Below are positions 27,594 through 43,961 of a DNA stretch of 64,000 nucleotides, in pieces. Below the pieces are notes generated by a model. The model searched no databases. It saw nothing but the letters and a program-made list of their open reading frames with translations, and had not been told where the DNA came from. Source of the DNA: Candidatus Poribacteria bacterium. Lineage in GTDB: Bacteria > Poribacteria > WGA-4E > PCPOR2b. Where the stretch lies: NCBI GenBank assembly GCA_965116925.1, contig OZ220744.1, forward strand, positions 4,640,001-4,704,000. Reading direction: 5' to 3'. How positions within the stretch are numbered: the stretch's first letter is position 1; each line of letters starts with the position of its first letter. Both the position numbers and the translations under genes were made by a program.

Positions 27594-28967
27594 CTATGAA
27601 ATTCCCAACTTTTCCATCTTGAAACGGAGGGTGGAATAGGGGATACCGAGTTTTTTTGCGGTCTGACGGCGATTCCATCGGTTTTCTTCAAGTACCTGCA
27701 AGATCCACTCGGACTCGTTCTTGCCCGCTAATTGGTCAGATTGTGATAGCAGCTTTGCCGATACACCTTTTTGTATGTTGACATGTTCCGCCCCAATCAG
27801 CGAAACCTCCGGCGGACAAAGAGTAGCAGAGCACTCAACAATATTCCGCAACTCACGTACATTCCCAGGGTATTGATAATCCAGAAGGGACGATTGTGCT
27901 GCCTCTGAAAACCCTTCAAAGATACGTCCATTTCTAGCGGTGTACGTCCCCAGAAAATGGTCAGCCAACGGTAGAATATCTTCGGGACGTTCCCGAAGCG
28001 GTTGCAGGTGAATAGAAAAAACGTTGAGGCGATAGTATAGATCGTCGCGGAATTGTCCAGATTCGACAATGTGTGCGGGATCCTTGTTGACCGCACTAAT
28101 AACACGTTCTTGGACGGAAATCTCCTGAGTGCCACCAACAGGTATCAGTGTCCGGGTATCAAGAATCCGTAGTAGCTTCGCTTGTGTGTGGAGTGGGAGG
28201 TCCGCAATTTCATCCAGAAAAAGTGTGCCACTGTTTGCCATCTCAAAGTAACCGGGTCTATTCCTCGTAGCATTAGTGAACGCTCCTTTGACGTGACCAA
28301 AGAGTTCACTTTCGATCAGTGTCTCTGGCAACGCTGAACAATTAACAGCAATAAACGGACACTCTTCCAAAGAGGATTGACGATGAATTTCCCGTGCCAC
28401 CACCTCTTTTCCTGTGCCAGTTTCGCCCGTGAGGAAAATCGTATCAACATTTGCTTCAACCGCTTGCCGGATGCGTTCTCGCACCTGTTGTGTGGCTGAA
28501 CTATTTCCCACAAAGCATTGATTTTTTATTTGAAAGTTCTTACGTGCCTGTACTCCCTTGGGAGTCTCGCGTGGGTTGCAGTGGCTCCGATGTGATCTGC
28601 CCAATCGTCTCCCATTCTCATGTCCCGCATTGATATTGGGAAACTGAATTGATTGGGGTAAAACGTCCCTCGCCTCCAGCCGGAAGGCTTCAATTACCTT
28701 CCTCACGGTATCATTTCCAGAGATGAGCACAACCGGCGTTTCTTGCCCGTTGTGCTGAACTTTTGCCAAGAATTCAGTGTCGTTGATGCCGGGCATACAG
28801 AGATCAACGAGAACCAAGTCATAATGCTGCGCGTTAACCTTCTTTAGGGCAGTATGCCCATCGCGAACAACTTCAACTTGATGCCCTAAATTGCACAAAT
28901 AGTCTTTCAAGGTCCCACAGATGATTCTTTCATCGCCAGTCAACAGAATGTACAATGAATTTTCCAT
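27594..28967 (-). CDS. NtrC-type sigma54-dependent activator (REC-AAA+-Fis HTH), atypical
   Basis: GETGTGKE, ESELFGH, GAFTNA, LFLDEI, FRDDLYYRL, PGNVREL, C-terminal HTH. Confidence 0.92.
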   Translation of the reverse strand: MENSLYILLTGDERIICGTLKDYLCNLGHQVEVVRDGHTALKKVNAQHYDLVLVDLCMPGINDTEFLAKVQHNGQETPVVLISGNDTVRKVIEAFRLEARDVLPQSIQFPNINAGHENGRRLGRSHRSHCNPRETPKGVQARKNFQIKNQCFVGNSSATQQVRERIRQAVEANVDTIFLTGETGTGKEVVAREIHRQSSLEECPFIAVNCSALPETLIESELFGHVKGAFTNATRNRPGYFEMANSGTLFLDEIADLPLHTQAKLLRILDTRTLIPVGGTQEISVQERVISAVNKDPAHIVESGQFRDDLYYRLNVFSIHLQPLRERPEDILPLADHFLGTYTARNGRIFEGFSEAAQSSLLDYQYPGNVRELRNIVECSATLCPPEVSLIGAEHVNIQKGVSAKLLSQSDQLAGKNESEWILQVLEENRWNRRQTAKKLGIPYSTLRFKMEKLGIS

Positions 28968-29366: not shown

Positions 29367-29660
29367 TTACCTTTTTTTCTTGGATGAGCCACTTTTCGGG
29401 GGACGCAGCCTGACTTCCTTATCCTCGAAGAACTGTTCCAATGCACGGTTAATCACCTCCGAGATCTGCTGCTGTTCCCAGTAGGCGTATCCCCGCAGTT
29501 TGGCGATTAAGTCCACATGAATGCGATATGTCTGGCGCTTGGTTCCGATGGTCCCCGTGTAGTCGCTTGAGAATAGCTCACTTCTCCCGTTCAAAGGCGG
29601 TGAGTTGTTCTTTGCCTTGCTGGAACGCGCTTTCTGATTCATATTCATTGTCTTTGTCAT
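29367..29660 (-). CDS. Small ribbon-helix-helix (CopG-like) DNA-binding protein
   Basis: KRQTYRI strand plus two helices (LIAKLRGYAYW, ISEVINRALEQFF); GGAGG RBS. Confidence 0.65.
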   Translation of the reverse strand: MTKTMNMNQKARSSKAKNNSPPLNGRSELFSSDYTGTIGTKRQTYRIHVDLIAKLRGYAYWEQQQISEVINRALEQFFEDKEVRLRPPKSGSSKKKR

Positions 29661-29724: not shown

Positions 29725-29794
29725 AGGATAACAACCTATAAAACAAAAAGTCCAGTCGTCTTTAGGGCATCTGGACGTAACATGTCCAGACGCC
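29725..29794. promoter_or_regulatory. Conserved promoter/operator module copy A
   Basis: Minus-strand TGnTATCCT; CCAG 21 nt away; palindrome TCTGGAC-N7-GTCCAGA. Confidence 0.7.
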
Positions 29795-29840
29795 TTCAAA
29801 AACGGGTTGTTCATATAGAATAAAAGAGTAAGGCACTAAG

Positions 29841-29874
29841 AGAAACCGAGTTTTCAAGAAAAAACTCGGTTTCT
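29841..29874. repeat. Palindromic repeat copy 3
   Basis: Reverse orientation of 4742-4775. Confidence 0.85.
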
Positions 29875-29910
29875 GCTACACAAGACCTACTACTGCCGAT
29901 TGCCATGAGA

Positions 29911-29980
29911 AGAATACCAACTTACAACACAAAAACTCCAGCCATTTTTAGGGAGTGTAGACATAATATGTCTACACTCC
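29911..29980. promoter_or_regulatory. Promoter/operator module copy B with perfect 29-bp palindrome
   Basis: GGAGTGTAGACATA-A-TATGTCTACACTCC (29952-29980); minus-strand TGnTATTCT at the same spacing as copy A. Confidence 0.75.
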
Positions 29981-30150
29981 TTCAAAAACAGTTGCACATT
30001 GAACCCACGGGCGTTTACACTATAAATTGCGTCAGATAAGCTTATTGTGTTCGTTACTATTCCATTTTAGATGTTCCATTTGCAAGCTTAGGATGCTGGA
30101 GACCTGTTTTACAATTTCCCATAACATAGCTTGCGACAAGGAGGAAAACA

Positions 30151-30324
30151 ATGATACTCCAAACGATTGATACCGCAGAACCCAACTTTCCCATCAATAT
30201 CTTTACAGCCGAAGAGGATACCCCAGAAACCGGCGAGTCCGATTGGCTTCCCCTCATGTGTTGTAGTTACTCGAGTGCTCCTTTTTGGATCGACTCCATC
30301 TGGGAAACCGACGTTGATGAGTAA
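30151..30324 (+). CDS. Putative RiPP precursor peptide, 57 aa (not in ORF track)
   Basis: AAGGAGG RBS; MILQTIDTAEPNFPINIFTAEEDTPETGESDWLPLMCCSYSSAPFWIDSIWETDVDE; 70 nt upstream of co-oriented rSAM/SPASM. Confidence 0.75.
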   Translation: MILQTIDTAEPNFPINIFTAEEDTPETGESDWLPLMCCSYSSAPFWIDSIWETDVDE

Positions 30325-30394
30325 GCAGTAACGAGTGATGCGCTGCATATGAAAACCGTGGTGCATCACTCATTATTCAATTGGAGGCTTTCAA

Positions 30395-31744
30395 ATGAAA
30401 TTATCCCAGTTTACCGTTGTCCTTAATGATTATCCGGAAACAGACCATCACCTGTTGTATCACACGCTGTCTCGCGCACTCATTGAAGTTGACAAGGCGG
30501 GAGGGGATGTGTTACAAAATCTATCAACAGATCCCCCCACCGATGCACGGGCTTTGACTTTCCTCAAGGAACTTCAGACGCAAGGGTTTATCGTTGAAAA
30601 ATCGATTAACGAGGGGGAACGTTATCTCGAATACCTGAATCAGAGCACTTCTCAGCCGGGGGGTGAGTTGAGCGTGACTTTGCTGACGAACTTGCAGCGT
30701 TGTCCGCTCGCTTGCAGTTATTGCTATCAGAAAGGGACACATACCGGGGAACGTTTGGCGGGCGATCTGTCCGAAGAGTGCCTTGATTTTATCAAGAGGC
30801 ACTGCTTAAAACTAGGTGTCGAGCGGTTATTTATCAGCTACTACGGGAGTGAGCCACTTTCTAACTTGAAGGCGATTGTTTCAACTGCGACTGAACTTCA
30901 GAGGTTTTGCCGAAAGCAGGGCATCCACTTCCGGTTCGGGATGGTGACAAATGGCGTACTCTTGACACGGAAGGTTGTTGAACAATTGCTTCCGCTCGGA
31001 TTTGCTCAAGCACAGATTACTATCGACGGAAATCAAGAGACGCATGATGCCTCGCGCCCGTTTCAGAGTGGCAAAGGCACCTATTCCACGATTATGAAAA
31101 ATCTGTCTCAATACGCGGGCCTCATCCATACCACCGTCCTCTGCGTCCTTGATGAATCCCGGATTGATGCGGCATACGAGTTGGTTGACACTTTAGCCTT
31201 GAAGGGTTACTCCCAAAAGCGGGTCCAGATGACTTTCTCACCGGTTATGCCGACATACGACAATGAAACTGTCGAGGCGGCACAGCTGTCCCTAGATAAG
31301 GCACAAATGTTGATAACAGAGAAAAAAATGGCAGTTGAAGTTGCGAAACTCTCGATTTATGCCGCAAAGAAGGGGTTACACGACGATCTTCGTCCTCAGC
31401 ACACATGGTGTGCCATGCAGCACCACGATGGACGGAATATCACCTTGGATCCCTCTGGAAAGATCTATACCTGTCCGACGTTTATCGGCCGGGATAAAAA
31501 ATATGAGGCGGGGCATATCTCTGGGGAGATTGGTGGGATTGATTTGGTTCTCAAGGAGCAGTACGTCCGTTCAGAGCAGTGTCTCTCTTGCCAGTATCTC
31601 CCCATCTGCGCCGATTGTCGCGCCGATGCTCTCTACCAGACGGGAGAGATTACCGAGGCAAATTCAAAGGAAGAGGTCTACGATAGTATTGTGCCTCTGT
31701 TGGTCAAGGCGCACTATGAATCCTCTAAGAATAGGGCTATGTGA
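30395..31744 (+). CDS. Radical SAM/SPASM peptide maturase-like enzyme
   Basis: CPLACSYC, YYGSEP, TNG, TIDG..H...R; SPASM WC...G.IYTC...CLSCQYLPICADC; ~90-aa N-terminal RRE-like extension. Confidence 0.9.
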   Translation: MKLSQFTVVLNDYPETDHHLLYHTLSRALIEVDKAGGDVLQNLSTDPPTDARALTFLKELQTQGFIVEKSINEGERYLEYLNQSTSQPGGELSVTLLTNLQRCPLACSYCYQKGTHTGERLAGDLSEECLDFIKRHCLKLGVERLFISYYGSEPLSNLKAIVSTATELQRFCRKQGIHFRFGMVTNGVLLTRKVVEQLLPLGFAQAQITIDGNQETHDASRPFQSGKGTYSTIMKNLSQYAGLIHTTVLCVLDESRIDAAYELVDTLALKGYSQKRVQMTFSPVMPTYDNETVEAAQLSLDKAQMLITEKKMAVEVAKLSIYAAKKGLHDDLRPQHTWCAMQHHDGRNITLDPSGKIYTCPTFIGRDKKYEAGHISGEIGGIDLVLKEQYVRSEQCLSCQYLPICADCRADALYQTGEITEANSKEEVYDSIVPLLVKAHYESSKNRAM

Positions 31745-32051
31745 TAGTGGATCCTAGAATTAATGAGACACTCCAAACCGCCCCGGTTTGCACCCAGGCC
31801 CAGTAGGTTCGGTTTCCTAACCAAACCGGCCTTCTACGCAACCTACTAGACCTAGCATGGCTTCTATAACTAGTTTTCCGTCCCCACAAGAGTCAAGCAA
31901 GTTTTGTTGGATTCAAGGTTTTTGCCTAAGATTCGGTGCGGTTGGAAACCGCACCTACCGGGGTCATAGCCCGATTTTCCCATCCCCGGTAGGCGAGGTT
32001 TCCTAACCTCGCCGATTTGCAGTGTCCAATTAATTCTAAAATCTACCATAG
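31743..32051. mobile_element. MITE family B copy containing GTAG-type REP hairpins
   Basis: Inverted ends ATAGTGGATCCTAGAATTAAT / ATTAATTCTAAAATCTACCAT. Confidence 0.65.
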
Positions 32052-32078
32052 TACGAAAGACCCGATTAGCTTATACAA

Positions 32079-33683
32079 ATGTCCAAAATCGATACCCTCC
32101 TCAAATTTATTGCCTATCAAAAGCAACACCCCCAAGCCAACGACAAAGAAATTGCCCAAGGGATTGGAATGTCAGCGCGACATGTCAGCCGGTGCAGAAA
32201 AGAGGTGAACCTTCTCAAACACCAGTTGGCTGAACCAACCTTGCAACCGGGACAGATCCAATTTATATTGTCACTGCTGAACCGACGGGAACCGGATCAG
32301 CAGGAGATTGCCCAACAGCTTCAAAAGCAGATGGGGGTCTCCTACACCGGAAGCCTTCGTGCCACGCGCCCCAATGAGGAGGCACCTGTTAGCTGGCTCG
32401 AAATCGGCGAGTTGATTCCAGTTGAAATGGGGGCTTTAGACCGCTTGCACCCAGTACTAAGTTTCTGGCTGCAAAACCTGTGCTATGATCCCCTCCTGAT
32501 GTCTCACCGAAATGGCGAAATCGAAGGACGGCTCGCAACAGGTTGCGAGGCGGTGCAAGGAAATTCGGAGTGGCATCTGACCTTGAGAAAAGACCTGCGT
32601 TGGAACGATGGAAAACCGATTACCCTTGAAGAGGTGATCGCGGCGTTTGCTGCGAGCCGCATCGCGCCGATTATCGCAGAGATGAAACCGGATGGCAAGG
32701 ACCAACTTCGAGTTCAACTTACTCAAGAGGACCCGTTCTTTCCACTTCGTCTGCGCAATATCTCCCCACTACCTTCCCACGCGTCCCAACCCTACCGTGT
32801 GATCTCAGGTCCCTATCGACTGAAGTATTTCCGTCCGGATGCCATGACCTTTCGCTTTGAGCCGAATCCAGATTACTATCGTGAGGGAAATCCCCACATT
32901 GATTGGTTGACCGTAAGGCGCTTCACACTACCCGCCAATGCGGTTAAGGCAGTTGAAAATGGGACACTGGATCTGCTTTTTGTCCCTTTTTATGCGATGC
33001 AGTCCCTCTACCAATTCCCAACGACGGTGCCTTGTCAACAGTGGCCCTTTTTTGAAGATAACTACTACGCCCTATTCCTCAACCGCTATCATGGACCTCT
33101 TTCGGACAAAAAGAACTGTAGGCTGCTTAAAGGAGCCATCGATTATCAGACAATCAACCTCTACCTGCGCATGGGACAGGTTGTTGAGGAAGAAAATCTC
33201 CCATCACTTCCTCACTCCCCTTTTGACATTCGGATTGCCTGCTCACGCGGCAGCTTTCGCTATTTGGCTCATCTCATCGGAAAGTCAGCGGGTTCTTCTG
33301 TGGTGAATCCTATCTCTGTCAAAGGGGAGATGCGGGAGGAGGCGGATGCCTTTTTAACGCAGTTCTTTTTCGGTTTTGGATACAGCAATCTTTCGCAATT
33401 CTTCCACTCCGACGGAGAACACAACTTTTTCGGCTACTCCAGTCCCCAAGTTGATGAGATGCTCTCTCAGCTCAACGGAATGTCGAACCCAAGCGCAAGA
33501 AGTAGGATTGGGCGGCAGGTATTGTCCCTCATACAGGAAGATTTCGCGGCGATCCTGTTGGCACCCTGCTTCCAATATACACTCTCGCCGTTAGAAATCC
33601 AGTTCGACGATAGCCTCACCGATACGATCGATCTGATTCAAAACATGAGCCAACTCACCGTGGAACGTCACCGGACCGGTTAG
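32079..33683 (+). CDS. HTH + family-5 solute-binding-domain protein (SgrR-like architecture)
   Basis: DKEIAQGIGMSARHVSRCR HTH; LRKDLRWNDGKPITLEEV, SGPYRL, FEPNPDYY SBP5 motifs; no signal peptide or lipobox. Confidence 0.8.
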   Translation: MSKIDTLLKFIAYQKQHPQANDKEIAQGIGMSARHVSRCRKEVNLLKHQLAEPTLQPGQIQFILSLLNRREPDQQEIAQQLQKQMGVSYTGSLRATRPNEEAPVSWLEIGELIPVEMGALDRLHPVLSFWLQNLCYDPLLMSHRNGEIEGRLATGCEAVQGNSEWHLTLRKDLRWNDGKPITLEEVIAAFAASRIAPIIAEMKPDGKDQLRVQLTQEDPFFPLRLRNISPLPSHASQPYRVISGPYRLKYFRPDAMTFRFEPNPDYYREGNPHIDWLTVRRFTLPANAVKAVENGTLDLLFVPFYAMQSLYQFPTTVPCQQWPFFEDNYYALFLNRYHGPLSDKKNCRLLKGAIDYQTINLYLRMGQVVEEENLPSLPHSPFDIRIACSRGSFRYLAHLIGKSAGSSVVNPISVKGEMREEADAFLTQFFFGFGYSNLSQFFHSDGEHNFFGYSSPQVDEMLSQLNGMSNPSARSRIGRQVLSLIQEDFAAILLAPCFQYTLSPLEIQFDDSLTDTIDLIQNMSQLTVERHRTG

Positions 33684-33754
33684 TAATAGTTGCTAGCAAC
33701 ATTTACTAATAATCGGGCGAATCGCTTCAATGACTTTTTTAACATTTGCCGTTG

Positions 33755-33797
33755 AAAGCCTGATGCTGACTGACTTTGGAGCATCAGCGTTTTCTTT
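33755..33797 (+). terminator. Probable intrinsic terminator
   Basis: CTGATGCT...AGCATCAG stem followed by CGTTTTCTTT. Confidence 0.55.
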
Positions 33798-33811
33798 GGC
33801 ACGGTAATTGC
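33797..33811 (+). promoter_or_regulatory. Sigma54 (-24/-12) promoter
   Basis: TGGCAC-GGTAA-TTGC, matching TGGCAC-N5-TTGC with GG-N10-GC spacing. Confidence 0.75.
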
Positions 33812-33912
33812 CCCTACTTGAGATTGTCCCGAATCAAAGATTCGGAAGAGTTCTATCTCTAACAGCAGAAGTAGATTGCTTGCTTCTGCAAATCCGAAAG
33901 GAGTTACTCATA

Positions 33913-34110
33913 ATGTTACGGAAAGCATTGATACTCGGAATGGTTTTCATTTTCGCACTGAGCCTATTGGCCGTGTCAATGATTACATGTTTTACCCATG
34001 AAGCAGAGGCACACGACTGGCAGCACCCGGGCGTTCACTGGAATTGCGGGGACGACGGGGTTTTCCACTTTGATCCAGGCTTCGCTGGCTGCACTTGGGA
34101 AACACATTAA
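33913..34110 (+). CDS. Secreted His/Cys-rich small peptide, paralog 1 (65 aa)
   Basis: AAAGGAG RBS; signal peptide ending AEA; mature HDWQHPGVHWNCGDDGVFHFDPGFAGCTWETH; paralog at 39468. Confidence 0.85.
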   Translation: MLRKALILGMVFIFALSLLAVSMITCFTHEAEAHDWQHPGVHWNCGDDGVFHFDPGFAGCTWETH

Positions 34111-34122
34111 AATTGGGCCTCT

Positions 34123-34164
34123 TCGTTATGCTAAAAGCCTATGGCGAGGCTTTTAGCATAACGA
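34123..34164. terminator. Perfect 18-bp hairpin after peptide 1
   Basis: TCGTTATGCTAAAAGCCT-N6-AGGCTTTTAGCATAACGA; conserved at 39710-39751; no U-tract. Confidence 0.7.
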
Positions 34165-34211
34165 CCTACCTGCTTTACCATCTGTTTGGTCCTAATTTGC
34201 TTGGTCCTAAG

Positions 34212-34532
34212 TACCTTGATTTCATCCAATGAATGCGGGGTTCTATACATTTCTCAAGCGTCCACAAATGTAGGCCGGCATTGAGCAGAAGCCGAGTCAA
34301 AAGGGCACCAACAGACTCCAGAAACCTTTTGACCGCAAAAGAGGCGAAATTCGCTCATTTTGCCCCTTTTTGCCTCATTGCTGAAAAGTTGGATCCCTGT
34401 CGTAGCAAGGGTGGAAAAGGTTCGCTGTGGAAATCTTGACCCTTTGAGATTGCTTGATAATGCACCGGCACTGGGTTGATTAGCCTTTGACAGATCAATA
34501 ACACCCTTACTTGCTTGGACAAAAATTAGGTA
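34212..34532. mobile_element. Possible IS remnant with imperfect terminal IRs
   Basis: TACCTTGATTTCATCCAA / TTGGACAAAAATTAGGTA; absent from the homologous position after peptide 2. Confidence 0.45.
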
Positions 34533-34622
34533 TTTACAAATGACTCTAGATGAACACTCCTCCCCGTAATGAAGCGATTACGTTGCCTTCCTACTCCGAA
34601 GGAGGGCAACATTTGAAAAGAG

Positions 34623-34780
34623 TAGGACTTACACGTTTTAGTAGGGAACAACAATTGTCGTTCCCTACAGACATCTTATAGGGCCTCTGCTGTAGTTGCT
34701 CGTTTCTTAATCCCGATGTATCGGGGCGGCGATAAATCCCCGAACTACAAAACCTTGAGCGTTCAACTGCGTCAGTCCTA
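34623..34780. mobile_element. MITE family A
   Basis: TAGGACTTACAC...TGCGTCAGTCCTA with AAGAG duplication. Confidence 0.75.
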
Positions 34781-34986
34781 AAGAGAATAGAATGAACAAA
34801 AGGTTAGCGAAAAACATCCTCCAAACGATTGGTGGTGTTCTCGCGCTAATAGCTTTTCAGAAAATATTTGCTAATTACGGATTATGAAGAAGGCATGAAG
34901 CGGATATTGGCAAAGCAGATACAGCAAATCCTTGAACGAGAAAAACAACCTAATCTAACCTCTACTGTTGCACAATCCACCTCCCA

Positions 34987-36690
34987 ATGAAACCGTTCTC
35001 CCAGAAAACTTCCTCAATTTTTTTTGCCGTGTGTTTATTCGTTGTTGCAAGTGCATCTCGATTGTTCTCTCTGGGGGCACACTGGACCTCTGATGAGGTT
35101 GGGTGGCTAGACCATAGTACGGTGTTTATGGCCGCAGTCGAGATGGGTGCCTTTTCAGAAACTCTGGTCACTTTTCATCCCGGTGTCATAACGATATGGC
35201 TTGCTGCCCTCCGCACCTTTTTTACCGAACCGCATATAAGTGTTCAAGGTTTAGCGTTAGCCCGGTGGTTCATCGGTGTCGCCCTGTTAAGCGGAATTGG
35301 TGTAGCAGCGATGCTGCTGTATCGATTGCTTGGACGTTGGGTTGCGGTCATCGGTGCGACGTTTCTGTCCTTCTCTCCACTCTTTTTAGCCCAATCCCGT
35401 CGCGTCCACACCGATGCCTTGGCGTCGATGTTTGTCCTGTTGACAGTCCTATCCCTCCTACTCTATTGTGGGGCACCCCAAAAACGCCGTTACCTTATCG
35501 GTTCTGGAATTGCATTCGGTCTAGCCTGCCTTGCCAAAAGCAACTCCCTTATTCTGCTCTTGTGGCTGCCTATCTGCTTCGTCCTGTTTCGGAATCGGGA
35601 GGAGACGTGGCGGCAGTTCTTTCTCCGGGGGCTTGGAGGGTGCCTCTGTTTCCTGAGTTGCACGCTACTCACCGTTTTCGCGCTGTGGCCCCTCTTTTGG
35701 AATCCCGTCTTTCTGATGTTTGGGGTGTGTCTGTTAGGTGTCACGCTGCTTGCGGATCGGGAGTTACAGAAAGGGGCACATGGACGACTCACCCTATATT
35801 TGGTATCGGTGGTGGTGGTAGGTGTGGTATCCGGCTATATGGTCCGAACCGTATGGCGGGTGTTCGATGGCGTTGCGTGGGCGATTACCACACCGCATAA
35901 CGTCGAACACTTCTTCCTCGGACAGGTGTTATATGACCCCGGCTGGCTCTTCTACCCGTTGGTGCTCTGTACAGAGACCACGCCGTTAACCCTTCCCTTA
36001 GTATTCGCTGGGTGTCTCTTTCTGTGGAGGAAACGCCATCAGGAAGGGTATGCGCGACAGTTTCGGATAGCACTCGCGTTGGTGGCGGTTGTCCTACTGT
36101 TCACCCTCTGTCTCTCGCTGACAAGCAAAAAGTTTAGTCGATATCTGCTACCCGCTTTCCCAATTCTGGAGATACTTGCCGCCATCGGCTTTTTTGAGTT
36201 TCTTAAATGGGGTTACTCCTATATCGACTCCCGTTTTGGGACCGAGACAAACTCCCAAAAACTCACCTTTTCTATCGTGACCCTCCTCTGTCTCTTCCTG
36301 ATCCAAATCCTGCCGGTCCTACGGCTTCACCCCTACTACGGCACCTACTACAACCTCTGCTTCAAACTCACTGATATCAGAAAAATTATCACAGTTGGCG
36401 CAGGTGCGGGGTATGATCTTGCGGCAAAATACCTAAATAGGAAGCCAAATGCACAAGCGCTACGGGTTCACACCTTTCCACCAAGTGCCCAATTCTTTTA
36501 TCAATACTTTATTGGACAGTCCTCCTGGTCCGAATCAGGTGAAGTGGCCGTCCCAGATTATGAGGTGGTCCATCTCCGCGAATCCCAAGCGGGATGGGTG
36601 CCGCAAACGGGAACGCTCAACGGACAGCTAGAACACGTGATAACCCTCAACGGCATTGACTATGTTTGGATTTATAGGATACCACGATAG
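34987..36690 (+). CDS. GT-C membrane glycosyltransferase (ArnT/PMT-like)
   Basis: WTSDE, HPG, SRRVHTD, RYLLP; many TM segments. Confidence 0.85.
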   Translation: MKPFSQKTSSIFFAVCLFVVASASRLFSLGAHWTSDEVGWLDHSTVFMAAVEMGAFSETLVTFHPGVITIWLAALRTFFTEPHISVQGLALARWFIGVALLSGIGVAAMLLYRLLGRWVAVIGATFLSFSPLFLAQSRRVHTDALASMFVLLTVLSLLLYCGAPQKRRYLIGSGIAFGLACLAKSNSLILLLWLPICFVLFRNREETWRQFFLRGLGGCLCFLSCTLLTVFALWPLFWNPVFLMFGVCLLGVTLLADRELQKGAHGRLTLYLVSVVVVGVVSGYMVRTVWRVFDGVAWAITTPHNVEHFFLGQVLYDPGWLFYPLVLCTETTPLTLPLVFAGCLFLWRKRHQEGYARQFRIALALVAVVLLFTLCLSLTSKKFSRYLLPAFPILEILAAIGFFEFLKWGYSYIDSRFGTETNSQKLTFSIVTLLCLFLIQILPVLRLHPYYGTYYNLCFKLTDIRKIITVGAGAGYDLAAKYLNRKPNAQALRVHTFPPSAQFFYQYFIGQSSWSESGEVAVPDYEVVHLRESQAGWVPQTGTLNGQLEHVITLNGIDYVWIYRIPR

Positions 36691-37132
36691 GCTGAATGGG
36701 GAGGTAAAATAGCCTATATAAGTTGATTTCTAACGAGCACAAAATTATTGTCTGAATCGCGGATTAACCAGATGACGCGGATTGCGCGGATTCATGTATG
36801 AATCAAGATTTAAGGATTTACAGGATACTCCTCAGCCCCTGAACTAATGTTAGGAGCGTTGAGGATTCGCTAGGTAAATGTAGGGAACGCAGATCTGCGT
36901 TCCCTACGATGCCCCAAAAGGGTAGGCGTATCAGGAGAAGGATTTCCGCAGCCCAAACCCACAGTGGGAGAGGCTGCCTCGCCTCAATGTATACGCTATC
37001 GGTCTCATTAGCGATTCAGACACGTGCCACATGTCGCCCCGCTGGGGCTAAATGAACCAACGACCCTGTTCCCATTTTCACCCATTGGCTCATGTTAAGA
37101 AATCGTGCAACAGGGATCTGGGATGGAAGAAA

Positions 37133-37164
37133 GAAACCGAGTTTTCAAGAAAAAACTCGGTTTC
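37133..37164. repeat. Palindromic repeat copy 4
   Basis: GAAACCGAGTTTTCAAGAAAAAACTCGGTTTC. Confidence 0.85.
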
Positions 37165-37190
37165 AAACCTCAAATACCTAAAAACCTACG

Positions 37191-37973
37191 ATGAATCTGA
37201 TTAAACTCCTATCTACCGATTTTTTCACCGGTCAAATCTTGTTCTCAGGGAAGGGGTTGCTCGATATCCTGTGGTTTCTCATCCGCAACCCCCAAGTAAA
37301 GTCTCTAAGACTCGCTGTGCTCATCCTGCAGCTGATCCCCAAATATACAAAGGTGTCGGTGAAGCGACTGATAAATCTCTACCGCTTGACACAAAAGGTA
37401 AACAAACTGAGATTACCCGGAGATATAGTCGAGTGTGGGGTGTGGAATGGCGGATCTGCCGCCATGATGGGGGTAGCGGACCGAGACGATGAAACCTCCG
37501 GCAAAGTCAGGAAGTTATGGCTATTTGATTCGTTTCGTGGGCTGCCACCGCCAAGCAACAGAGACGGAAAACAGGCAAGGGAAACCTATTTTCAAGGGTG
37601 GTGTCACGGTGAGACGGAGAAGGTTAAACAAATTTTCCGGCGATTTCGGCTCTCGTTACAGCATATCAACATTGTTCCCGGGTGGTTTGATGAAACATTG
37701 CAGACAGCAGATCTTCAAACCATCGCTCTCCTGCATATTGACGCCGATTGGTATGCGTCGGTCAAGATAGTTTTAGAAACCTTATATGATAAAGTGGTTG
37801 AAGGCGGGTTTGTTGTCTTGGATGATTATTGGAGATGGCCCGGATGCCGTGAGGCGGTAACAGATTATCTCAAAGAACATCAGATTCAAGGGGTAGTATT
37901 AAAAAAAGCGGACCTACACGGCGTTTATTTTCAAAAACCGCACCGATGCAGAGGAGAAACAGTCGATAATTGA
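37191..37973 (+). CDS. TylF/MycF-family sugar O-methyltransferase
   Basis: GDIVECGVWNGGS, LFDSFRGLP, GWFDETL, LHIDADWY, LDDY. Confidence 0.9.
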   Translation: MNLIKLLSTDFFTGQILFSGKGLLDILWFLIRNPQVKSLRLAVLILQLIPKYTKVSVKRLINLYRLTQKVNKLRLPGDIVECGVWNGGSAAMMGVADRDDETSGKVRKLWLFDSFRGLPPPSNRDGKQARETYFQGWCHGETEKVKQIFRRFRLSLQHINIVPGWFDETLQTADLQTIALLHIDADWYASVKIVLETLYDKVVEGGFVVLDDYWRWPGCREAVTDYLKEHQIQGVVLKKADLHGVYFQKPHRCRGETVDN

Positions 37974-37975
37974 TG

Positions 37976-38992
37976 TTATCGGTCGATCTGTTTGAGCCGT
38001 CCCCACATTGTAAACTTTTTGCCAGAGGAAGAGACCGAAAAAGGAGAGTTAAACCATGCAGGATTAATGTCATCATGATGGGGATTATTGGTGAGGTTTT
38101 GAAGATTCTTACCATTGACGTTCATCACGTAGATTTCTGCGCCCCCCTTCCTGTAGGACGCGAAGGCAATCCGTTTACCATCAGGGGACCATGAGGGATC
38201 TCTGTCATTCTGGCGATTTTTTGTGAGTCTTCGTTCATTCTGTCCATCGGCATCCATCACGTAGATTTCAAAGTTTTGAAGTTCCCCCTTTCCATCAGAC
38301 GCGAAGACAATCCGTTTACCGTCCGGTGACCATGAGGGATACCAGTCATTCTTTCGATTTTCAGTAAGTCTTTGTTCATTCCCCCCATCGGCGTCCATTA
38401 CGTAGATTTCATAAGTGATTCCAAATTTGTTTTCAAAGTGCCCATCTCTACGGGCACTGAAGACAATGCGTTCACCGTCGGGGGACCATGAGGGATGCCT
38501 GTCATCATCACCATCGGGATTTTTAGTGAGTCTTTGTTCATTTTGCCTATCGGCATCCATCACGTAGATTTCATAGTTAAAACGCCCATCCCTATCAGAC
38601 GTGAAAGCAATCCGTTTACCGTCGGGGGACCATGAGGGATCCCACTCATGCCCGGGATTTTCAGTAAGTCTCTGCTGATTATCCCCATCGGCGTCCATCA
38701 CGTAGACTTCATAAGTGATTATAAGACCGTGTCTAAAGCCATCTCTATTAGAAAGAAAAACAATGCGCTTGCCGTCGGGAGACCATGAGGGGTCCCTATC
38801 ATCGGAAGGATTGTTAGAGAGGTTTTGCTGATTCTCCCCATCAACATCCATCACGTAAATTTCCCAGTTCCCATCCCTCTTAGACGAGAAGGCAATTTGT
38901 GCCTGTGAGTCAACGCATACCATCAGCGGCGTTAGACCCAACACTACAACGATAGCTAAAACCAAATGTCCGAGATTGTCCCTTCGGTGCAT
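37976..38992 (-). CDS. Secreted PD40/TolB-like beta-propeller, paralog 1
   Basis: Repeated EIYVMDADG...RLT...PSWSPDG; signal peptide; GKKFTMWGRLK tail. Confidence 0.9.
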   Translation of the reverse strand: MHRRDNLGHLVLAIVVVLGLTPLMVCVDSQAQIAFSSKRDGNWEIYVMDVDGENQQNLSNNPSDDRDPSWSPDGKRIVFLSNRDGFRHGLIITYEVYVMDADGDNQQRLTENPGHEWDPSWSPDGKRIAFTSDRDGRFNYEIYVMDADRQNEQRLTKNPDGDDDRHPSWSPDGERIVFSARRDGHFENKFGITYEIYVMDADGGNEQRLTENRKNDWYPSWSPDGKRIVFASDGKGELQNFEIYVMDADGQNERRLTKNRQNDRDPSWSPDGKRIAFASYRKGGAEIYVMNVNGKNLQNLTNNPHHDDINPAWFNSPFSVSSSGKKFTMWGRLKQIDR

Positions 38993-39221
38993 CTGTTATT
39001 CCTCCTCTGTTTTCAAATCGTATTTTTTATCCTTTGGGGTTGATAGAGATAAGCTCGTGTTGGCAATTCTTTCCAATTAAAGGGTGGCGTGTGCATAAAT
39101 ATATCTTTTATTACAAACTATTTGAGTAATTTATGCAAAACTGTACCAAAATAAGGCATCAAACAAACAAAATCACTAACATATTCCACCGCGAAACATT
39201 ATGCACGCCCCTCAATTATGA

Positions 39222-39290
39222 AGTATATCAACCAATAACCTTAAAATGCCAGCTAAATTTAAGGGGACTGGACATATTATGTCATAACTC
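39222..39290. promoter_or_regulatory. Promoter/operator module copy C
   Basis: Minus-strand TGnTATACT, CCAG, GACAT-N3-ATGTC at the same spacing as A and B. Confidence 0.7.
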
Positions 39291-39467
39291 TCCCAAAAGT
39301 GACTTGAATTGTTATCGGTTGGCTGGTATTTTATAATTGTAACGGGGCAGATAAATTCGTGAACTGTAAAAGTTGTTCATGCCTGTCCCGAAATTGGAAG
39401 ATTTAGAAGTTCTATCTCTAGCAGCAGAAACCGATTACTTCTGCAAATCTGAAAGGAGTTAACCATA

Positions 39468-39683
39468 ATGTTAAGAAAAGCATTGACCCTCGGAACGGTT
39501 TTCATTTTAGCACTAAGCCTGTTGGCTGTGTCAATGATTACATGTTTTACCTATGACTCAGAGGCAGACCCTGGGCACGCAGGCGATCACTGGGATTGCG
39601 GGGACGCCGGGATTTTCCACCATGATCCAGGCCCGCCCTTGGACTGCACATTTATCCCCGGTGGCCATGTTACTGGAGAATAG
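39468..39683 (+). CDS. Secreted His/Cys-rich small peptide, paralog 2 (71 aa)
   Basis: Near-identical signal peptide, leader and hairpin to 33913; mature DPGHAGDHWDCGDAGIFHHDPGPPLDCTFIPGGHVTGE. Confidence 0.85.
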   Translation: MLRKALTLGTVFILALSLLAVSMITCFTYDSEADPGHAGDHWDCGDAGIFHHDPGPPLDCTFIPGGHVTGE

Positions 39684-39709
39684 ACTTCAGTGGTGCAAAT
39701 CAGGCACCT

Positions 39710-39751
39710 TCGTTATGCTAAAAGTCTTGTCATAGGCTTTTAGCATAACGA
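39710..39751. terminator. Hairpin after peptide 2
   Basis: Same stem as 34123-34164 with a different loop. Confidence 0.7.
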
Positions 39752-40168
39752 CCTACCTGCTTCGCTGGCTGTTTGGTTCTAAGTGGAGTATACGCCAGCC
39801 TATTTACAAATGACCTTAGGTGAGTGTTCCTCCTCTGTTCTCAAATCGGTTTTCTATTCTTTAGGGTTGATACAGGTCAACTTGTTTAGGCAACCCCTTT
39901 CCAATTAAGTCCCGCCTCTGTTGTCTCGTTTAAGAACGGACGGAATAGTTGATTCCTCCGATTTATGCCGATTTATCAAGCAGCCTTGACAAGTCCCGAT
40001 TCTCGGGATGCTCGGAACGGACCTGGAACGGCTTGGTAATGTCTCGATTAGATCGGAACAAATCAAGTCGGAAGTGGCAATTCAGATCATTATCACATGG
40101 AGTCTTCCGACCCTTCTTTGACGTTTATGACCCAACCTCAACAAACATTGTTTTCTCAATAATGGCAA

Positions 40169-41194
40169 TTATTGGTCGACCTGTTTGAGCTGTCCCCATA
40201 TTGTAAACTGTTTGTCGACAGAAGAAACCGACAACGGAGAGTTAAACCATGCAGCATTAATGTCATCATGGCGATTATTGGTGAGGTTCTGCTGATTTCC
40301 ACCATCAGCGTCCATCACGTAGATTTCACGGTTTCCATCTCTATCAGACGAGAAGGCAATCCGTTCACCGTCAGGGGACCAGGAGGGAAACCTGTCATGA
40401 ACGCGATTTTCAGTGAGTTTTTGTTGATTCCCCCCATCAGCGTCCATCACGTAGATTTCAATGTTTACAAGGTCCCCCTTCCTATCAGACGCGAAGGTAA
40501 TTCGCTTACCATCGGGGGACCATGAGGGACCCCAGTCATTCTTTCGATTTTCAGTGAGTCTTTGTTGATTTCCACCATCGGCGTTCATCACGTAGATTTC
40601 ATAAGTGACTGCAAACTTGGTTTCAAAGTGCCCCTCCCTACGGGCACCGAAGACAATGCGTTGACCATCAGGGGACCATGAGGGATGCCTATCATCAAAA
40701 AAGGGACTGTCAGTGAGTCTTTGTTGATTCTCCCCATCGGCGTCCATCACGTAGATTTCAAGAGATTGAGGGATCTTCCCATTAAACGCGACTCTACTAG
40801 ACGCGAAGGCAATCCGTTTACCGTCAGGGGACCATGAGGGATATCTGTCATCATTGCGATCCTTAGTGAGGTTTTGAGGGTTGCCCCCATCGGCGTCCAT
40901 CACGTAGATTTCAGAAGTGAGTCTACCATCTATAGCGTGCCCATCCCTATTAGAGAAAAAGGCAATGCGCTTGCCATCCGGAGACCAAGAGGGGTCCCTA
41001 TCATTAGAGGGATTGTTAGTGAGGTTTTGTTGATTCCCCCCATCGGCATCCATCACGTAAATTTCCCAGTTCCCATCCCTATCAGACGAGAAGGCAATCC
41101 GTGCTTGTGCGTCAACGCATACCATTAGCAGCGTCAGGCCCAAAACTATAACACCAGCTAAAATGAGGTGTGCAAGATTCTTCCTTCGGTGCAT
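40169..41194 (-). CDS. Secreted PD40/TolB-like beta-propeller, paralog 2
   Basis: PSWSPDG repeats; DKQFTIWGQLK tail. Confidence 0.9.
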   Translation of the reverse strand: MHRRKNLAHLILAGVIVLGLTLLMVCVDAQARIAFSSDRDGNWEIYVMDADGGNQQNLTNNPSNDRDPSWSPDGKRIAFFSNRDGHAIDGRLTSEIYVMDADGGNPQNLTKDRNDDRYPSWSPDGKRIAFASSRVAFNGKIPQSLEIYVMDADGENQQRLTDSPFFDDRHPSWSPDGQRIVFGARREGHFETKFAVTYEIYVMNADGGNQQRLTENRKNDWGPSWSPDGKRITFASDRKGDLVNIEIYVMDADGGNQQKLTENRVHDRFPSWSPDGERIAFSSDRDGNREIYVMDADGGNQQNLTNNRHDDINAAWFNSPLSVSSVDKQFTIWGQLKQVDQ

Positions 41195-41235
41195 CTGTTA
41201 TTCCTCCTCTGTTTTCAAATCGCTTTATTATTCTT

Positions 41236-41368
41236 TAGACTTACGCAGTTGAACAGTCAAAGCCCTGTAGCTCGGCGATTCATCGCCGTTGGACACCGTT
41301 ACCAACCCTGGTCTCGGAACGGACGCCCGATGAATCGGGCAACTACAATCTGGAGTGCGTAAGTCCTG
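41236..41368. mobile_element. MITE family A inserted in the leader of TolB-like paralog 2
   Basis: TAGACTTACGCA...TGCGTAAGTCCTG flanked by ATTCTT duplication; leader homology resumes after it. Confidence 0.8.
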
Positions 41369-41533
41369 ATTCTTTGGAATTGATAGAGGTCAGATTGGGT
41401 TGGCAACCCCTTTACGATTAAAAGGGCAATTCGTATTATTATCGTCCGAACTTATCGCCCCTTCGTTGGCGTTTATGAGCTACTCCCGTATGTTTCCGCG
41501 TCTCAGCAAACGCTGTTTTCTCAACAATAGCAG

Positions 41534-42496
41534 TTATCGGTCAATCTGTTTGAGCCATCCCCACATTGTAAATTTTTTGCCAGCGGGAGAGATCGAGAAA
41601 GAAGAGTTAAACCATGCAGGCTCTTCTTCATCCTCGGGATGATTGGTGAGGTTCCGAGGATTACTCCCATCGGCAGCCATGACGTAGACGTCCGGATTCA
41701 AATCCCTCGTCCTATTCGACACGAAGGCAATTCGCTTACCGTCGGGTGACCATGAGGGAGACCGATCAGCATCGGGATGATTGGTGAGGTTTTGCTTATT
41801 ATCCCCATTGGTGTCCATCACATAGATTTCCCAGTTTCTCAGCCTCCCGGAAGTAAAAGCAATGCGCTTACCGTTAGGAGACCATGAGGGGCTAGAGTCA
41901 GAATCTTCATGATGGGTGAGTCTACGCTGATTCCCCCCATTGGCGTCCATCACGTAGATGTCAATGTTCCCACCGCTACTGGAAACAAAGACAATGCGTT
42001 TACCGTCGGGTGACCATGAGGGATCCTCGTCAAAACGGTTATTATTGGTGAGATTTTTAGGGTTGCCCCCATCGGTGTCCATCACGTAGATTTCACTGCG
42101 CCCCTTCCTATCAGACACGAAGACAATCTGTTTACCGTCAGGCGACCATGAGGGGTTCCATTCATCAAAGTCATTATTAGAAAGGTTTCGCTGATTGCCC
42201 CCATCGGCATCCATCACATAGATTTGCCGGTTCCAATCCCTATCATTCCTATCAGCAGTAAAGGCAATCCGTTTACCGTCAGGCGACCATGAGGGATGTT
42301 TATCATCACCAGGATTGTTAGTGAGATTTCGCGGATTATTCCCATCGGCGTCCATCACGTAGATTTCCCAGTGCCAATCCCTATCAGACATGAAGGCAAT
42401 CCGTGCCTGTGCACCAACGGCTACCATCAGCAGCGTTAGAACCAAGACGACAACGCTAGCTGAAACCAAATATGCGAGAGTGTCCCTTCGGTGCAT
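41534..42496 (-). CDS. Secreted PD40/TolB-like beta-propeller, paralog 3
   Basis: PSWSPDG repeats; PAGKKFTMWGWLK tail. Confidence 0.9.
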   Translation of the reverse strand: MHRRDTLAYLVSASVVVLVLTLLMVAVGAQARIAFMSDRDWHWEIYVMDADGNNPRNLTNNPGDDKHPSWSPDGKRIAFTADRNDRDWNRQIYVMDADGGNQRNLSNNDFDEWNPSWSPDGKQIVFVSDRKGRSEIYVMDTDGGNPKNLTNNNRFDEDPSWSPDGKRIVFVSSSGGNIDIYVMDANGGNQRRLTHHEDSDSSPSWSPNGKRIAFTSGRLRNWEIYVMDTNGDNKQNLTNHPDADRSPSWSPDGKRIAFVSNRTRDLNPDVYVMAADGSNPRNLTNHPEDEEEPAWFNSSFSISPAGKKFTMWGWLKQIDR

Positions 42497-42551
42497 CTGT
42501 TATCCCTCCTCTGTTCTCAAATCGGTTTATTATTTTTTGGGGTTGATATAA

Positions 42552-42620
42552 AGTATATCAACCAATAATCTCAAAATACCAGCCAACTTTAAGGAGTCTG
42601 GACAGAATACGTCTACACTC
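42552..42620. promoter_or_regulatory. Promoter/operator module copy D
   Basis: Minus-strand TGnTATACT, CCAG, GAC-N7-GTC at identical spacing. Confidence 0.7.
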
Positions 42621-42672
42621 TCTGGAAAATGGTTGAGATTACATGCAAGAATAATTTATATTGTTATATTGT

Positions 42673-42857
42673 TAGGAGTTACGCACTTCAGTTTGTAGTA
42701 GCGCAATTCATTGCACGTTACCACGGGCGATAAATCGCCCGACTACGAACCTTTATCCCTATTGTAGTTGCCCGATTCATCGGGCGTTGGAAACGGTATC
42801 CTACGGCGATTCATCGCCGAGCTACAGGGCTTTGATTGTTCAACTGTGTAAGTCCTA
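42673..42857. mobile_element. MITE family A
   Basis: TAGGAGTTACGCA...TGTGTAAGTCCTA with TATTGT duplication. Confidence 0.8.
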
Positions 42858-42875
42858 TATTGTATAAAATAATCT

Positions 42876-43151: not shown

Positions 43152-43961
43152 ATGTCAAATATGTCAAAACACGTGACAACCTGTATTCTTGTTGCAACTT
43201 TTTTTACTGCCGTGATTACACCGGTTTTTGGACATGAGCAGCAGTGGATATTGCCCAACTTTTTCTATACGGACCATGAATCTCCTTGGTTGGGTATGGA
43301 GCACACAGCGGGAGATCAACGGTTTGTCTCTGGACATGGGTTAGGAAGCCCTTTATGGATTATCCATCCGGAAGGATGGCGTATGGGACGACCATCATCT
43401 ATTTTTGTTGGTCAGACGAGGACTGTCGGGGAGATAGAACTGCGAGAGCCGGGCACCTATCGAATCGAAACAAACCATCCGGTCCAATATGTGACAGAAT
43501 TTGAGGTAGATGGCAAAAAGAGGTGGGCTGGCAAATCGAAAGACCAACTACCCGGCAAAAAGATTCTCCAGTCGGCACATCGATGGTCTCAGACCACCAC
43601 TTTTGTGACGGTGAAGAAATATACGAAACGTGTTTTGGAACCTGCCGGTGCATTTTTAGAAATCGTGCCAGTAACCCATCCAAACAAGATTTTTGTGGGA
43701 AAGCCATTTGCAGTTCGCGTTCTATCAAGAGGTCAACTGGTTCCGGGCCAAGAGGTTCAAGCTTACTCGGAGATGGACAGCGGACATGACACACCCCTAG
43801 TAACAGTTACCAACGCCGATGGTGAATGTGAATTAACCTTTCCATCTTCCGGTATGTATCTACTAACCGCCCGACTCCGTCAGGATGCCAAAGATTCTTC
43901 CCGCGCCAATATTGATGTATTTAATGTATCAATGCTGGTAGAGGTTAGGAAGAAAAGGTAA
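43152..43961 (+). CDS. DUF4198 (NikM-like/metal uptake-associated) exported protein
   Basis: Signal peptide followed by His; LEIVPVTHP, TNADG, GMYLL. Confidence 0.8.
   Translation: MSNMSKHVTTCILVATFFTAVITPVFGHEQQWILPNFFYTDHESPWLGMEHTAGDQRFVSGHGLGSPLWIIHPEGWRMGRPSSIFVGQTRTVGEIELREPGTYRIETNHPVQYVTEFEVDGKKRWAGKSKDQLPGKKILQSAHRWSQTTTFVTVKKYTKRVLEPAGAFLEIVPVTHPNKIFVGKPFAVRVLSRGQLVPGQEVQAYSEMDSGHDTPLVTVTNADGECELTFPSSGMYLLTARLRQDAKDSSRANIDVFNVSMLVEVRKKR

Follow-up and report, generated by a model that had tools for sequence, protein, structure and literature searches.

A Palindrome between Back-to-back Promoters of Poribacteria Is Probably the Operator of an Adjoining HTH-SBP5 Regulator

Introduction

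In regulators of the DsvR and SgrR type an N-terminal helix-turn-helix (HTH) domain is joined to a cytoplasmic family-5 solute-binding protein (SBP) fold, according to PMC13060122, which also proposes an 11-bp box for DsvR, and PMC2760817 describes the targets of such regulators as often divergent from the regulator gene. A different precedent comes from CRP, whose class I sites are centered at -61.5 (PMC2859248) and which controls two divergent promoters from one site in 11 Escherichia coli cases (PMC3105977). Here we analyze a stretch of 64,000 nucleotides from a Candidatus Poribacteria bacterium (GenBank assembly GCA_965116925.1, contig OZ220744.1, positions 4,640,001 to 4,704,000), referred to as the window, in which a palindromic module occurs four times near a gene for a one-component regulator with an HTH and an SBP_bac_5 domain (HTH-SBP5). 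In the open-access literature we found no paper on operators in Poribacteria or on SgrR-like regulators in Poribacteria.

The module is a real and well-supported regulatory cassette. On the basis of its sequence, geometry, gene orientation, co-location and co-occurrence with the regulator, and helix-base covariation, which are directly observed, we regard its ~39-bp palindrome, lying between back-to-back promoters, as the probable operator of the adjoining HTH-SBP5 regulator, which would bind as a dimer and activate both promoters from about -61/-62.

Anatomy of the Module in the Window

A preliminary description of the window had placed four copies of a promoter/operator module at 29725, 29911, 39222, and 42552 (copies A-D), and all four are present as described. 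The CCAG elements begin at 29752, 29938, 39249, and 42579, with GAC exactly 22 nt after each CCAG start; the minus-strand extended -10 elements read TGTTATCCT (A), TGGTATTCT (B), and TGATATACT (C) and TGATATACT (D); and the plus-strand TTG follows GTC after 20, 19, 20, and 19 nt in A, B, C, and D, respectively. The GAC-N7-GTC palindrome of that description is also there but is too short, as the full dyad, seen across 109 copies, spans ~39 bp in the form GT-nnn-GAC-N7-GTC-nnn-AC with T/A tracts at ±18-19. Searched for by itself, the dyad pattern has 10 sites in the 6.47-Mb genome and 0 in five block shuffles and is therefore not a product of chance. In copy B the symmetry holds at positions 1-14 from the center, the arms of copies C and D are asymmetric, and copy A has what seems a degenerate rightward promoter, in which TTGTTC is not followed by a good -10 at +49/50. 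The elements of the four copies are listed below, with the gene that each promoter faces (RHH, ribbon-helix-helix; rSAM, radical SAM).

29725-29733, minus strand: extended -10 of the putative leftward promoter of A, first base 50 nt from the center, facing the RHH-like gene
29761-29799, no strand: putative operator dyad A, center 29780, arm triplets CTG/CTG
29911-29919, minus strand: extended -10 of the putative leftward promoter of B
29947-29985, no strand: putative operator dyad B, center 29966, arms GTA/GTA
29992-30021, plus strand: putative rightward promoter of B (TTGCAC, 18 nt, TACACT; -10 at +50), facing the precursor, rSAM, regulator, and peptide genes
39222-39230, minus strand: extended -10 of the putative leftward promoter of C, facing the propeller gene at 37976-38992
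39258-39296, no strand: putative operator dyad C, center 39277, arms CTG/TAT
39304-39332, plus strand: putative rightward promoter of C (TTGAAT, 17 nt, TGn-TATTTT; -10 at +50), facing secreted peptide 2
42552-42560, minus strand: extended -10 of the putative leftward promoter of D, facing the propeller genes at 41534-42496 and 40169-41194
42588-42626, no strand: putative operator dyad D, center 42607, arms CTG/GTA
42633-42662, plus strand: putative rightward promoter of D (TTGAGA, 18 nt, TATATT; -10 at +50), facing the DUF4198 gene

Resemblances to dif, attC, sigma54 or extracytoplasmic function (ECF) promoters, and terminators were considered and dropped by eye; for a terminator, the T and A tracts flanking the dyad stand in the wrong order on either strand. 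At 42541-42563 a second perfect inverted repeat, with arms of 10 bp separated by 3 nt, overlaps the left -10 of copy D; similar repeats occur in loci L011, L016, L062, L105, and L114 and are absent from most copies. Intergenic repeats resembling repetitive extragenic palindromes (REP) are abundant (29843-29874, 34623-34780, and 42674-42860), and those between module D and the DUF4198 gene lengthen a leader that is ~123 nt in L028, L062, and L114.

The Module Accompanies a Family of Regulator Paralogs

The genome that contains the window (G000) is a single contig. With a hidden Markov model built up from the copies, 13 modules are recovered from it in full and two as weak partial matches, and nine of the 13 lie outside the window. 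Six full-length paralogs represent the HTH-SBP5 gene in G000, and five of these have ten of the 13 modules within 10 kb, in intervals that make up ~1.7% of the genome, with four of the ten at 360 bp or less; the other three modules are orphans, 126-206 kb from any paralog. The sixth paralog has the predicted recognition helix PQYL instead of xRHV and has no module of this kind, hereafter class 1, nearby.

Beyond G000, regulator and module co-occur in the same 17 of 41 genomes, all of one Poribacteria genus, and the other 24 have neither, in agreement with an N-terminal profile search of 29 genomes. Loci were taken from 58 regions around regulator matches and 20 regions around the best module hits, and the 109 copies are those in the loci fetched. 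A class-1 module is present at 45 of 47 loci of the RHV clade versus 0 of 9 of the PQYL clade; the two RHV loci without one are a contig-end fragment (L066) and a broken fragment (L050). A genome carries up to seven paralogs, with identities of 66-88% within the one genus. Tandem or near-tandem duplicates are seen in L014, L016, L018, and L039, and in L039 the second copy carries R38L together with a GAT-core operator of its own, as if caught while diverging in specificity. Two orphan class-1 modules of genome G001, which is 98% complete, have intact ATG arms (L103:6445 and L104:6502).

The preliminary description envisaged an island-only regulon under one regulator. With 13 modules and six paralogs in G000 this does not stand, and the module is a genus-wide cassette, partitioned among paralogs, rather than a single island regulon.

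The N-terminal profile has 57 matches among all cluster representatives, including a few full-length relatives at lower similarity, so the regulator family is small yet extends beyond this genus. Two loci of 45% identity from a scan of Joint Genome Institute (JGI) metagenomes keep the rSAM-regulator pair with another helix and without a class-1 module; as these are the only two, they provide no independent test set for a residue-base code. Distant full-length HTH-SBP5 relatives with other helices are found at L101:1736-4993 and L102:3346-6042, in both of which an rSAM gene adjoins the regulator, and as P0127, P0130, P0140, P0142, P0147, and P0148. Contigs of two metatranscriptome runs contain 5-6% of the words and are uninformative on starts, strand, and level.

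Promoter Geometry and Gene Orientation

With a strict pattern a left -10 was found in 90 of the 109 copies examined and a right -10 in 48, and these start 49 or 50 bp from the dyad center in 88 and 42 cases, respectively; a looser pattern places a -10 at 49/50 on the left in 96 copies, on the right in 48, and on both sides in 38. The dyad center would then fall at about -61/-62 for both promoters, provided that the -10 begins at -12. For comparison, the tRNA promoters of G000 have TTG-16/18-TAnnnT in 21 of 48 cases versus 2.6 expected, mostly as TTGACA, and the -35 boxes of the module are weaker than these, being of the TG(G/A) type on the left and TTGAGA or TTGCAA on the right. Because the -35 boxes are weak, both promoters would be expected to need an activator. 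A-tracts are conserved at ±17-20, between dyad and -35, which is only suggestive of a contact between an activator and the C-terminal domain of the RNA polymerase alpha subunit (alpha-CTD).

Gene orientation was scored by an open reading frame (ORF) heuristic, in which a side without an ORF in the fetched stretch counts as "toward." By this measure, 100 of 109 copies have a left-hand nearest gene that points away from the dyad and 72 have such a gene on the right, with 65 having one on each side; in only 3 is the dyad center inside an ORF of at least 150 amino acids. The motif thus gives no sign of occurring irrespective of gene starts, and sequence, spacing, and orientation support the earlier description of a putative operator between bidirectional sigma70-type promoters. 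The target may also be divergent from the adjoining regulator, as at L003 and L006 in G000.

The same geometry bears on the sign of regulation. It is conceivable that the regulator binds the same dyad to repress, until relieved by a ligand, or that it activates one side and represses the other, in the way that SgrR is an activator of sgrS and a repressor of its own gene. The cis-trans evidence is neutral on the sign, SgrR is subject to negative autoregulation (PMC13060122), and the regulator is the first recognized gene on the right in 20 of the 109 copies. The dyad, however, overlaps neither the -35 nor the -10, the -35 boxes are weak relative to those of tRNA promoters, and both operator classes (see below) retain the 49/50 spacing on either side, as for a phase-dependent activator. 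We therefore consider repression unlikely and favor activation by the HTH-SBP5 regulator.

The HTH-SBP5 Regulator

32079-33683, plus strand: HTH + SBP_bac_5 one-component regulator, 534 amino acids, the likely (predicted) operator binder

The C-terminal part of the regulator matches SBP_bac_5 (PF00496) with 78.2 bits versus a cut-off of 32.4, and its sequence-profile matches to structures are NikA, OppA, and AppA; among solved structures, the closest are those of proteins that bind peptides or nickel complexes. The model has an N-terminal HTH where an export signal would otherwise stand, with helices predicted at residues 2-16, 22-29, and 33-50 and block scores of 59-82 in the predicted local distance difference test (pLDDT) over residues 1-40. 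The predicted recognition helix starts near Ala-33 and carries R34, H35, S37, and R38. Weak matches to HTH_PafC were obtained in 21 of 22 family members and to SgrR_N in 10 of 22 (best E 0.0017), and the nearest clusters of the ESM Atlas are SgrR-like (0.96). The regulator itself does not reach the SgrR_N (PF12793) cut-off (16.1 versus 24 bits, E 0.014), and because of this and the lack of an SgrS-like RNA in the window we do not file it as a member of SgrR. A full-length AlphaFold2 model from 5 sequences has a mean pLDDT of 41, and only its N-terminal helices are used; its Foldseek matches are SBP5 proteins with a template modeling (TM) score of ~0.15 and carry little weight. A homodimer prediction for residues 1-95 scored 0.15 (mark 0.42) and is used as evidence neither way.

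Recognition Helix and Operator Change in Step

Within single copies, the bases at ±7, 8, 9, and 12 are symmetric at frequencies of 0.72-0.81, versus 0.35-0.42 expected (81 copies), and arm sequence goes with the locus and not with the type of flank (distance 0.27, versus 0.45 after permutation, in 34 pairs whose kin are not independent). To relate operator to helix we used 46 regulators and 140 half-sites, after an 8-of-10 filter that dropped two decayed copies and two partial matches, with L035 kept by explicit exception. All 52 half-sites paired with R37 have G at ±7, as do 15 of 32 with S/M37 and none of 56 with I/L/K37; among the 428 variable columns, column 37 has the highest mutual information. 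None of the 122 half-sites of the 41 regulators with R34/H35/R38 departs from the GAC core. The core is altered in 5 of 5 regulators changed at these residues, versus 0 of the 41 canonical ones: H35Q goes with GCC, R34G with GGC or AGC, and R38L with GAT or GGC. On a tree built without the HTH, the independent core events are concordant in 4 of 4 cases and the R37 pairs in 2 of 2. The DNA-reading residues of the paralogs would thus change in step with the palindrome, as a natural recognition code. Copies A-D of the window are most likely served by the local S37 paralog, which belongs to the class with the most relaxed arms.

A Second Operator Class Beside the PQYL Clade

A prediction set beforehand was that the PQYL clade would have a different dyad with the same geometry. 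An AAACWA-N-TWGTTT dyad (class 2) was found at 9 of 10 loci, in the syntenic place, with the RHH-like gene on one side and the precursor gene on the other; it has T/A tracts at ±17-20 and a TTG at 26. Its left -10 lies at 50 in 9 of 9 loci and its right -10 at 49 in 8 of 9, the remaining locus, one with a broken regulator, having it at 48. Of 41 genomes, 11 match a strict pattern for the class-2 dyad and none matches the reversed pattern used as a control. G000 has about eight class-2 modules, with sites on contig C1 at ~3591548 (L010:7549), 4235703 (L008:5704), 2831049, 2831390, 2831560, 682580, 5966610, and 3500170.

The preliminary description left the choice of binder between the HTH-SBP5 protein and the RHH-like protein. 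Co-location, co-occurrence, helix-base covariation, and the second operator class favor the former, which is most likely the operator binder; the latter is disfavored by where its homologs occur.

An explanation without a binder would hold that the palindrome is a DNA structure (cruciform or hairpin), or owes its symmetry to template switching or short gene conversion, and that its match to the regulator reflects shared ancestry only. Symmetric covariation out to ±13, also in class-2 copies, and the many non-HTH columns that correlate with the arms would fit it. Yet G-U-type mismatches show no strand bias (24 versus 26 of 100), which argues against an RNA hairpin; the symmetry reaches a 1-nt center unable to form a loop (±1 is symmetric in 10 of 10 class-2 sites); core changes coincide with helix changes in all four independent events; and an Rfam scan of the window gave 0 matches. 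This explanation is quite improbable beside recognition by the HTH-SBP5 regulator.

Genes Served by the Module

The neighboring genes of the window are the following.

29367-29660, minus strand: RHH-like gene (label of the preliminary description), 97 amino acids, no Pfam or NCBIfam match, likely target
30151-30324, plus strand: putative precursor of a ribosomally synthesized peptide with post-translational modifications (RiPP), 57 amino acids, acidic, with a conserved CC(S/T/G)Y core
30395-31744, plus strand: radical SAM/SPASM peptide maturase-like gene, best match TIGR04280 with 231.6 bits, below the cut-off of 400
33913-34110, plus strand: secreted-type peptide 1, constant leader and hypervariable Cys/His core, no separate module found upstream
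37976-38992, minus strand: PD40/TolB-like beta-propeller gene 1
39468-39683, plus strand: secreted-type peptide 2, start codon 191 nt from the center of C
40169-41194, minus strand: PD40/TolB-like beta-propeller gene 2
41534-42496, minus strand: PD40/TolB-like beta-propeller gene 3
43152-43961, plus strand: DUF4198 gene

Over the 109 copies, the first recognized gene is a propeller in 43 cases on the left and 10 on the right and a secreted peptide in 18 and 4; RHH-like genes take this place only on the left (12), and RiPP precursor or rSAM genes (20) and DUF4198 genes (11) only on the right. The idea that all TolB-like arrays belong to the regulon was rejected, as a module lies within 1.2 kb at 6 of 41 automatically grouped arrays of G000.

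It is very improbable that the module is a small mobile repeat, similar to REP elements or miniature inverted-repeat transposable elements (MITEs), with outward promoters. Conserved flank types do recur at unrelated loci, and the three orphans of G000 are far from any paralog, as such a repeat would allow. Against this, G000 has 13 copies of the module versus 133 and 155 of two REP-like motifs, the module is confined to genomes with the regulator and mostly near paralogs, and the similarity extends into propeller and peptide gene leaders, as would follow if promoter and first gene duplicate together.

The least probable reading, that the 97-residue RHH-like protein is the binder, has in its favor that its gene adjoins copies A and B and homologous copies in nine other loci, but homologs also occur at 10 PQYL-clade loci without a class-1 module, and beyond these and 10 class-1 module loci none was found at the other loci searched, G000 having 2 homologs versus 13 modules. 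Since homologs stand at module-less loci and are missing at most module loci, and since the gene faces the left promoter, it is likely a target. A sigma54-dependent response regulator gene (27594-28967) lies downstream of it; no link to the module was found, none having been specifically tested.

The rSAM/SPASM enzyme is below all NCBIfam cut-offs, and the pair of precursor and rSAM genes (30151-31744) is kept beside both regulator clades; the locus is probably of an undescribed RiPP type. The secreted-peptide family comprises the two genes of the window and 33 further matches in fetched loci. Its members have a near-constant 33-residue leader and a hypervariable His/Trp-rich core with 2-4 or more cysteines; the Cys/His-rich core is different in nearly all of the 35 matches, one of which is truncated, and the start codon is often 190-197 nt from a dyad center. 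No Pfam or NCBIfam match to the family was obtained. A role as signal, as metal-binding peptide, or as defensin-like product is conceivable for them.

Discussion

The arrangement suggests the following mechanism. Two sigma70-type promoters with weak -35 boxes would stand back to back, and the regulator would bind the dyad between them as a predicted dimer, its recognition helix reading the core through contacts of R34/H35/R38 with GAC at ±4-6 and residue 37 reading the base at ±7. One bound dimer could then recruit RNA polymerase on either side by a class I (alpha-CTD) contact by way of the A-tracts. A cytoplasmic ligand in the SBP5 fold would switch the regulator; it may be a re-imported peptide, the RiPP product, or a metal complex. 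A peptide would be a plausible signal, because the closest solved structures bind peptides or nickel complexes and because a hypervariable peptide family adjoins the regulator. Module B would drive the precursor, rSAM, and regulator genes and probably peptide 1, and where the regulator is downstream of the right promoter positive feedback may arise. Paralog and cassette would duplicate together and retune helix and operator together, resulting in partly insulated local regulons of propellers, peptides, the RiPP locus, DUF4198, and the regulator itself.

Several observations weigh against this reading. At least one side lacks a recognized nearest gene, or has one that does not point away, in 44 of the 109 copies, and bidirectional control is thus not realized in every copy. 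Co-occurrence is imperfect: G001 has modules and, as the only regulator gene found, a broken PQYL-clade copy; L058 has a PQYL regulator without a syntenic class-2 dyad; and in G008 and G018, which have a class-2 dyad, our searches found no PQYL regulator. Column 37 falls to rank 10 after entropy normalization, and non-HTH columns rank higher for ±8, 9, 12, and 13, so shared ancestry explains much of the signal. There are only six independent pairs, and neither sign test alone can reach 0.05. Decayed copies near canonical regulators (L018 near 7860 and L024 at 8654), with non-GAC right halves, were filtered out, and arms are mixed within L028, L033, and L036 and in window copies C and D. The arm symmetry extends to ±13, and a single HTH helix usually reads less than that; class-2 arms also vary symmetrically, without an evident helix correlate.

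Tentatively, a larger picture can be drawn, in which these are genus-restricted peptide-sensing activators on a portable two-way class I cassette. Each paralog would sense its own hypervariable peptide or RiPP product and switch on propeller arrays, while helix residues and operator bases co-diversify, in a quorum-sensing-like system built on the SBP5 fold. We regard this broader reading as less likely than not.

For uncultured bacteria such as Poribacteria, it is of value that a regulator, its predicted operator, the promoter geometry, and a target set can be obtained from sequence alone. The analysis links one sensing family to part of an expanded repertoire of secreted beta-propellers, to hypervariable peptides, and to an rSAM RiPP locus. 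The paralog series offers a natural experiment on the way in which single helix changes would give duplicated regulators operators of their own, and it lends itself directly to tests in vitro and with reporters in E. coli. Synthetic biology might also use near-orthogonal two-way activator-operator pairs as a compact set of parts.

Comparison with Known Systems

The Poribacteria cassette is put together from parts of known kinds, an SgrR-like architecture and a layout resembling class I. It resembles SgrR and DsvR in its HTH + SBP_bac_5 architecture, its divergent targets, and its SgrR-type ESM Atlas clusters. It differs in an N-terminus under the SgrR_N cut-off, in the lack of an SgrS-like Rfam match in the window, and in targets that are secreted propellers, peptides, a RiPP locus, and DUF4198 rather than sugar-stress genes. 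There are also up to seven paralogs per genome with diverging operators and a long dyad, as opposed to the 11-bp box proposed for DsvR.

With class I CRP sites the cassette would share a dyad at about -61/-62 from both presumed starts, if the -10 begins at -12; it also has weak -35 boxes and A-tracts between site and -35. The regulator is not of the CRP family, however, activation is here inferred from sequence, and the symmetric 49/50-bp layout recurs as a fixed cassette, with 109 copies in the fetched loci and two operator classes. In the heavy-metal subfamilies of MerR, mutual information between columns of the DNA-binding domain and of the site likewise points to contacts (PMC5045206); the Poribacteria paralogs, by contrast, differ by single helix residues, which would make for a fine-grained code, though one with few independent events behind it. 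Finally, a cytoplasmic regulator beside a small secreted peptide and an rSAM RiPP locus recalls systems of the Rgg/SHP type (PMC13361665), from which the Poribacteria system differs in that its sensor fold is SBP5, not that of Rgg, and in that a peptide is here only a putative ligand.

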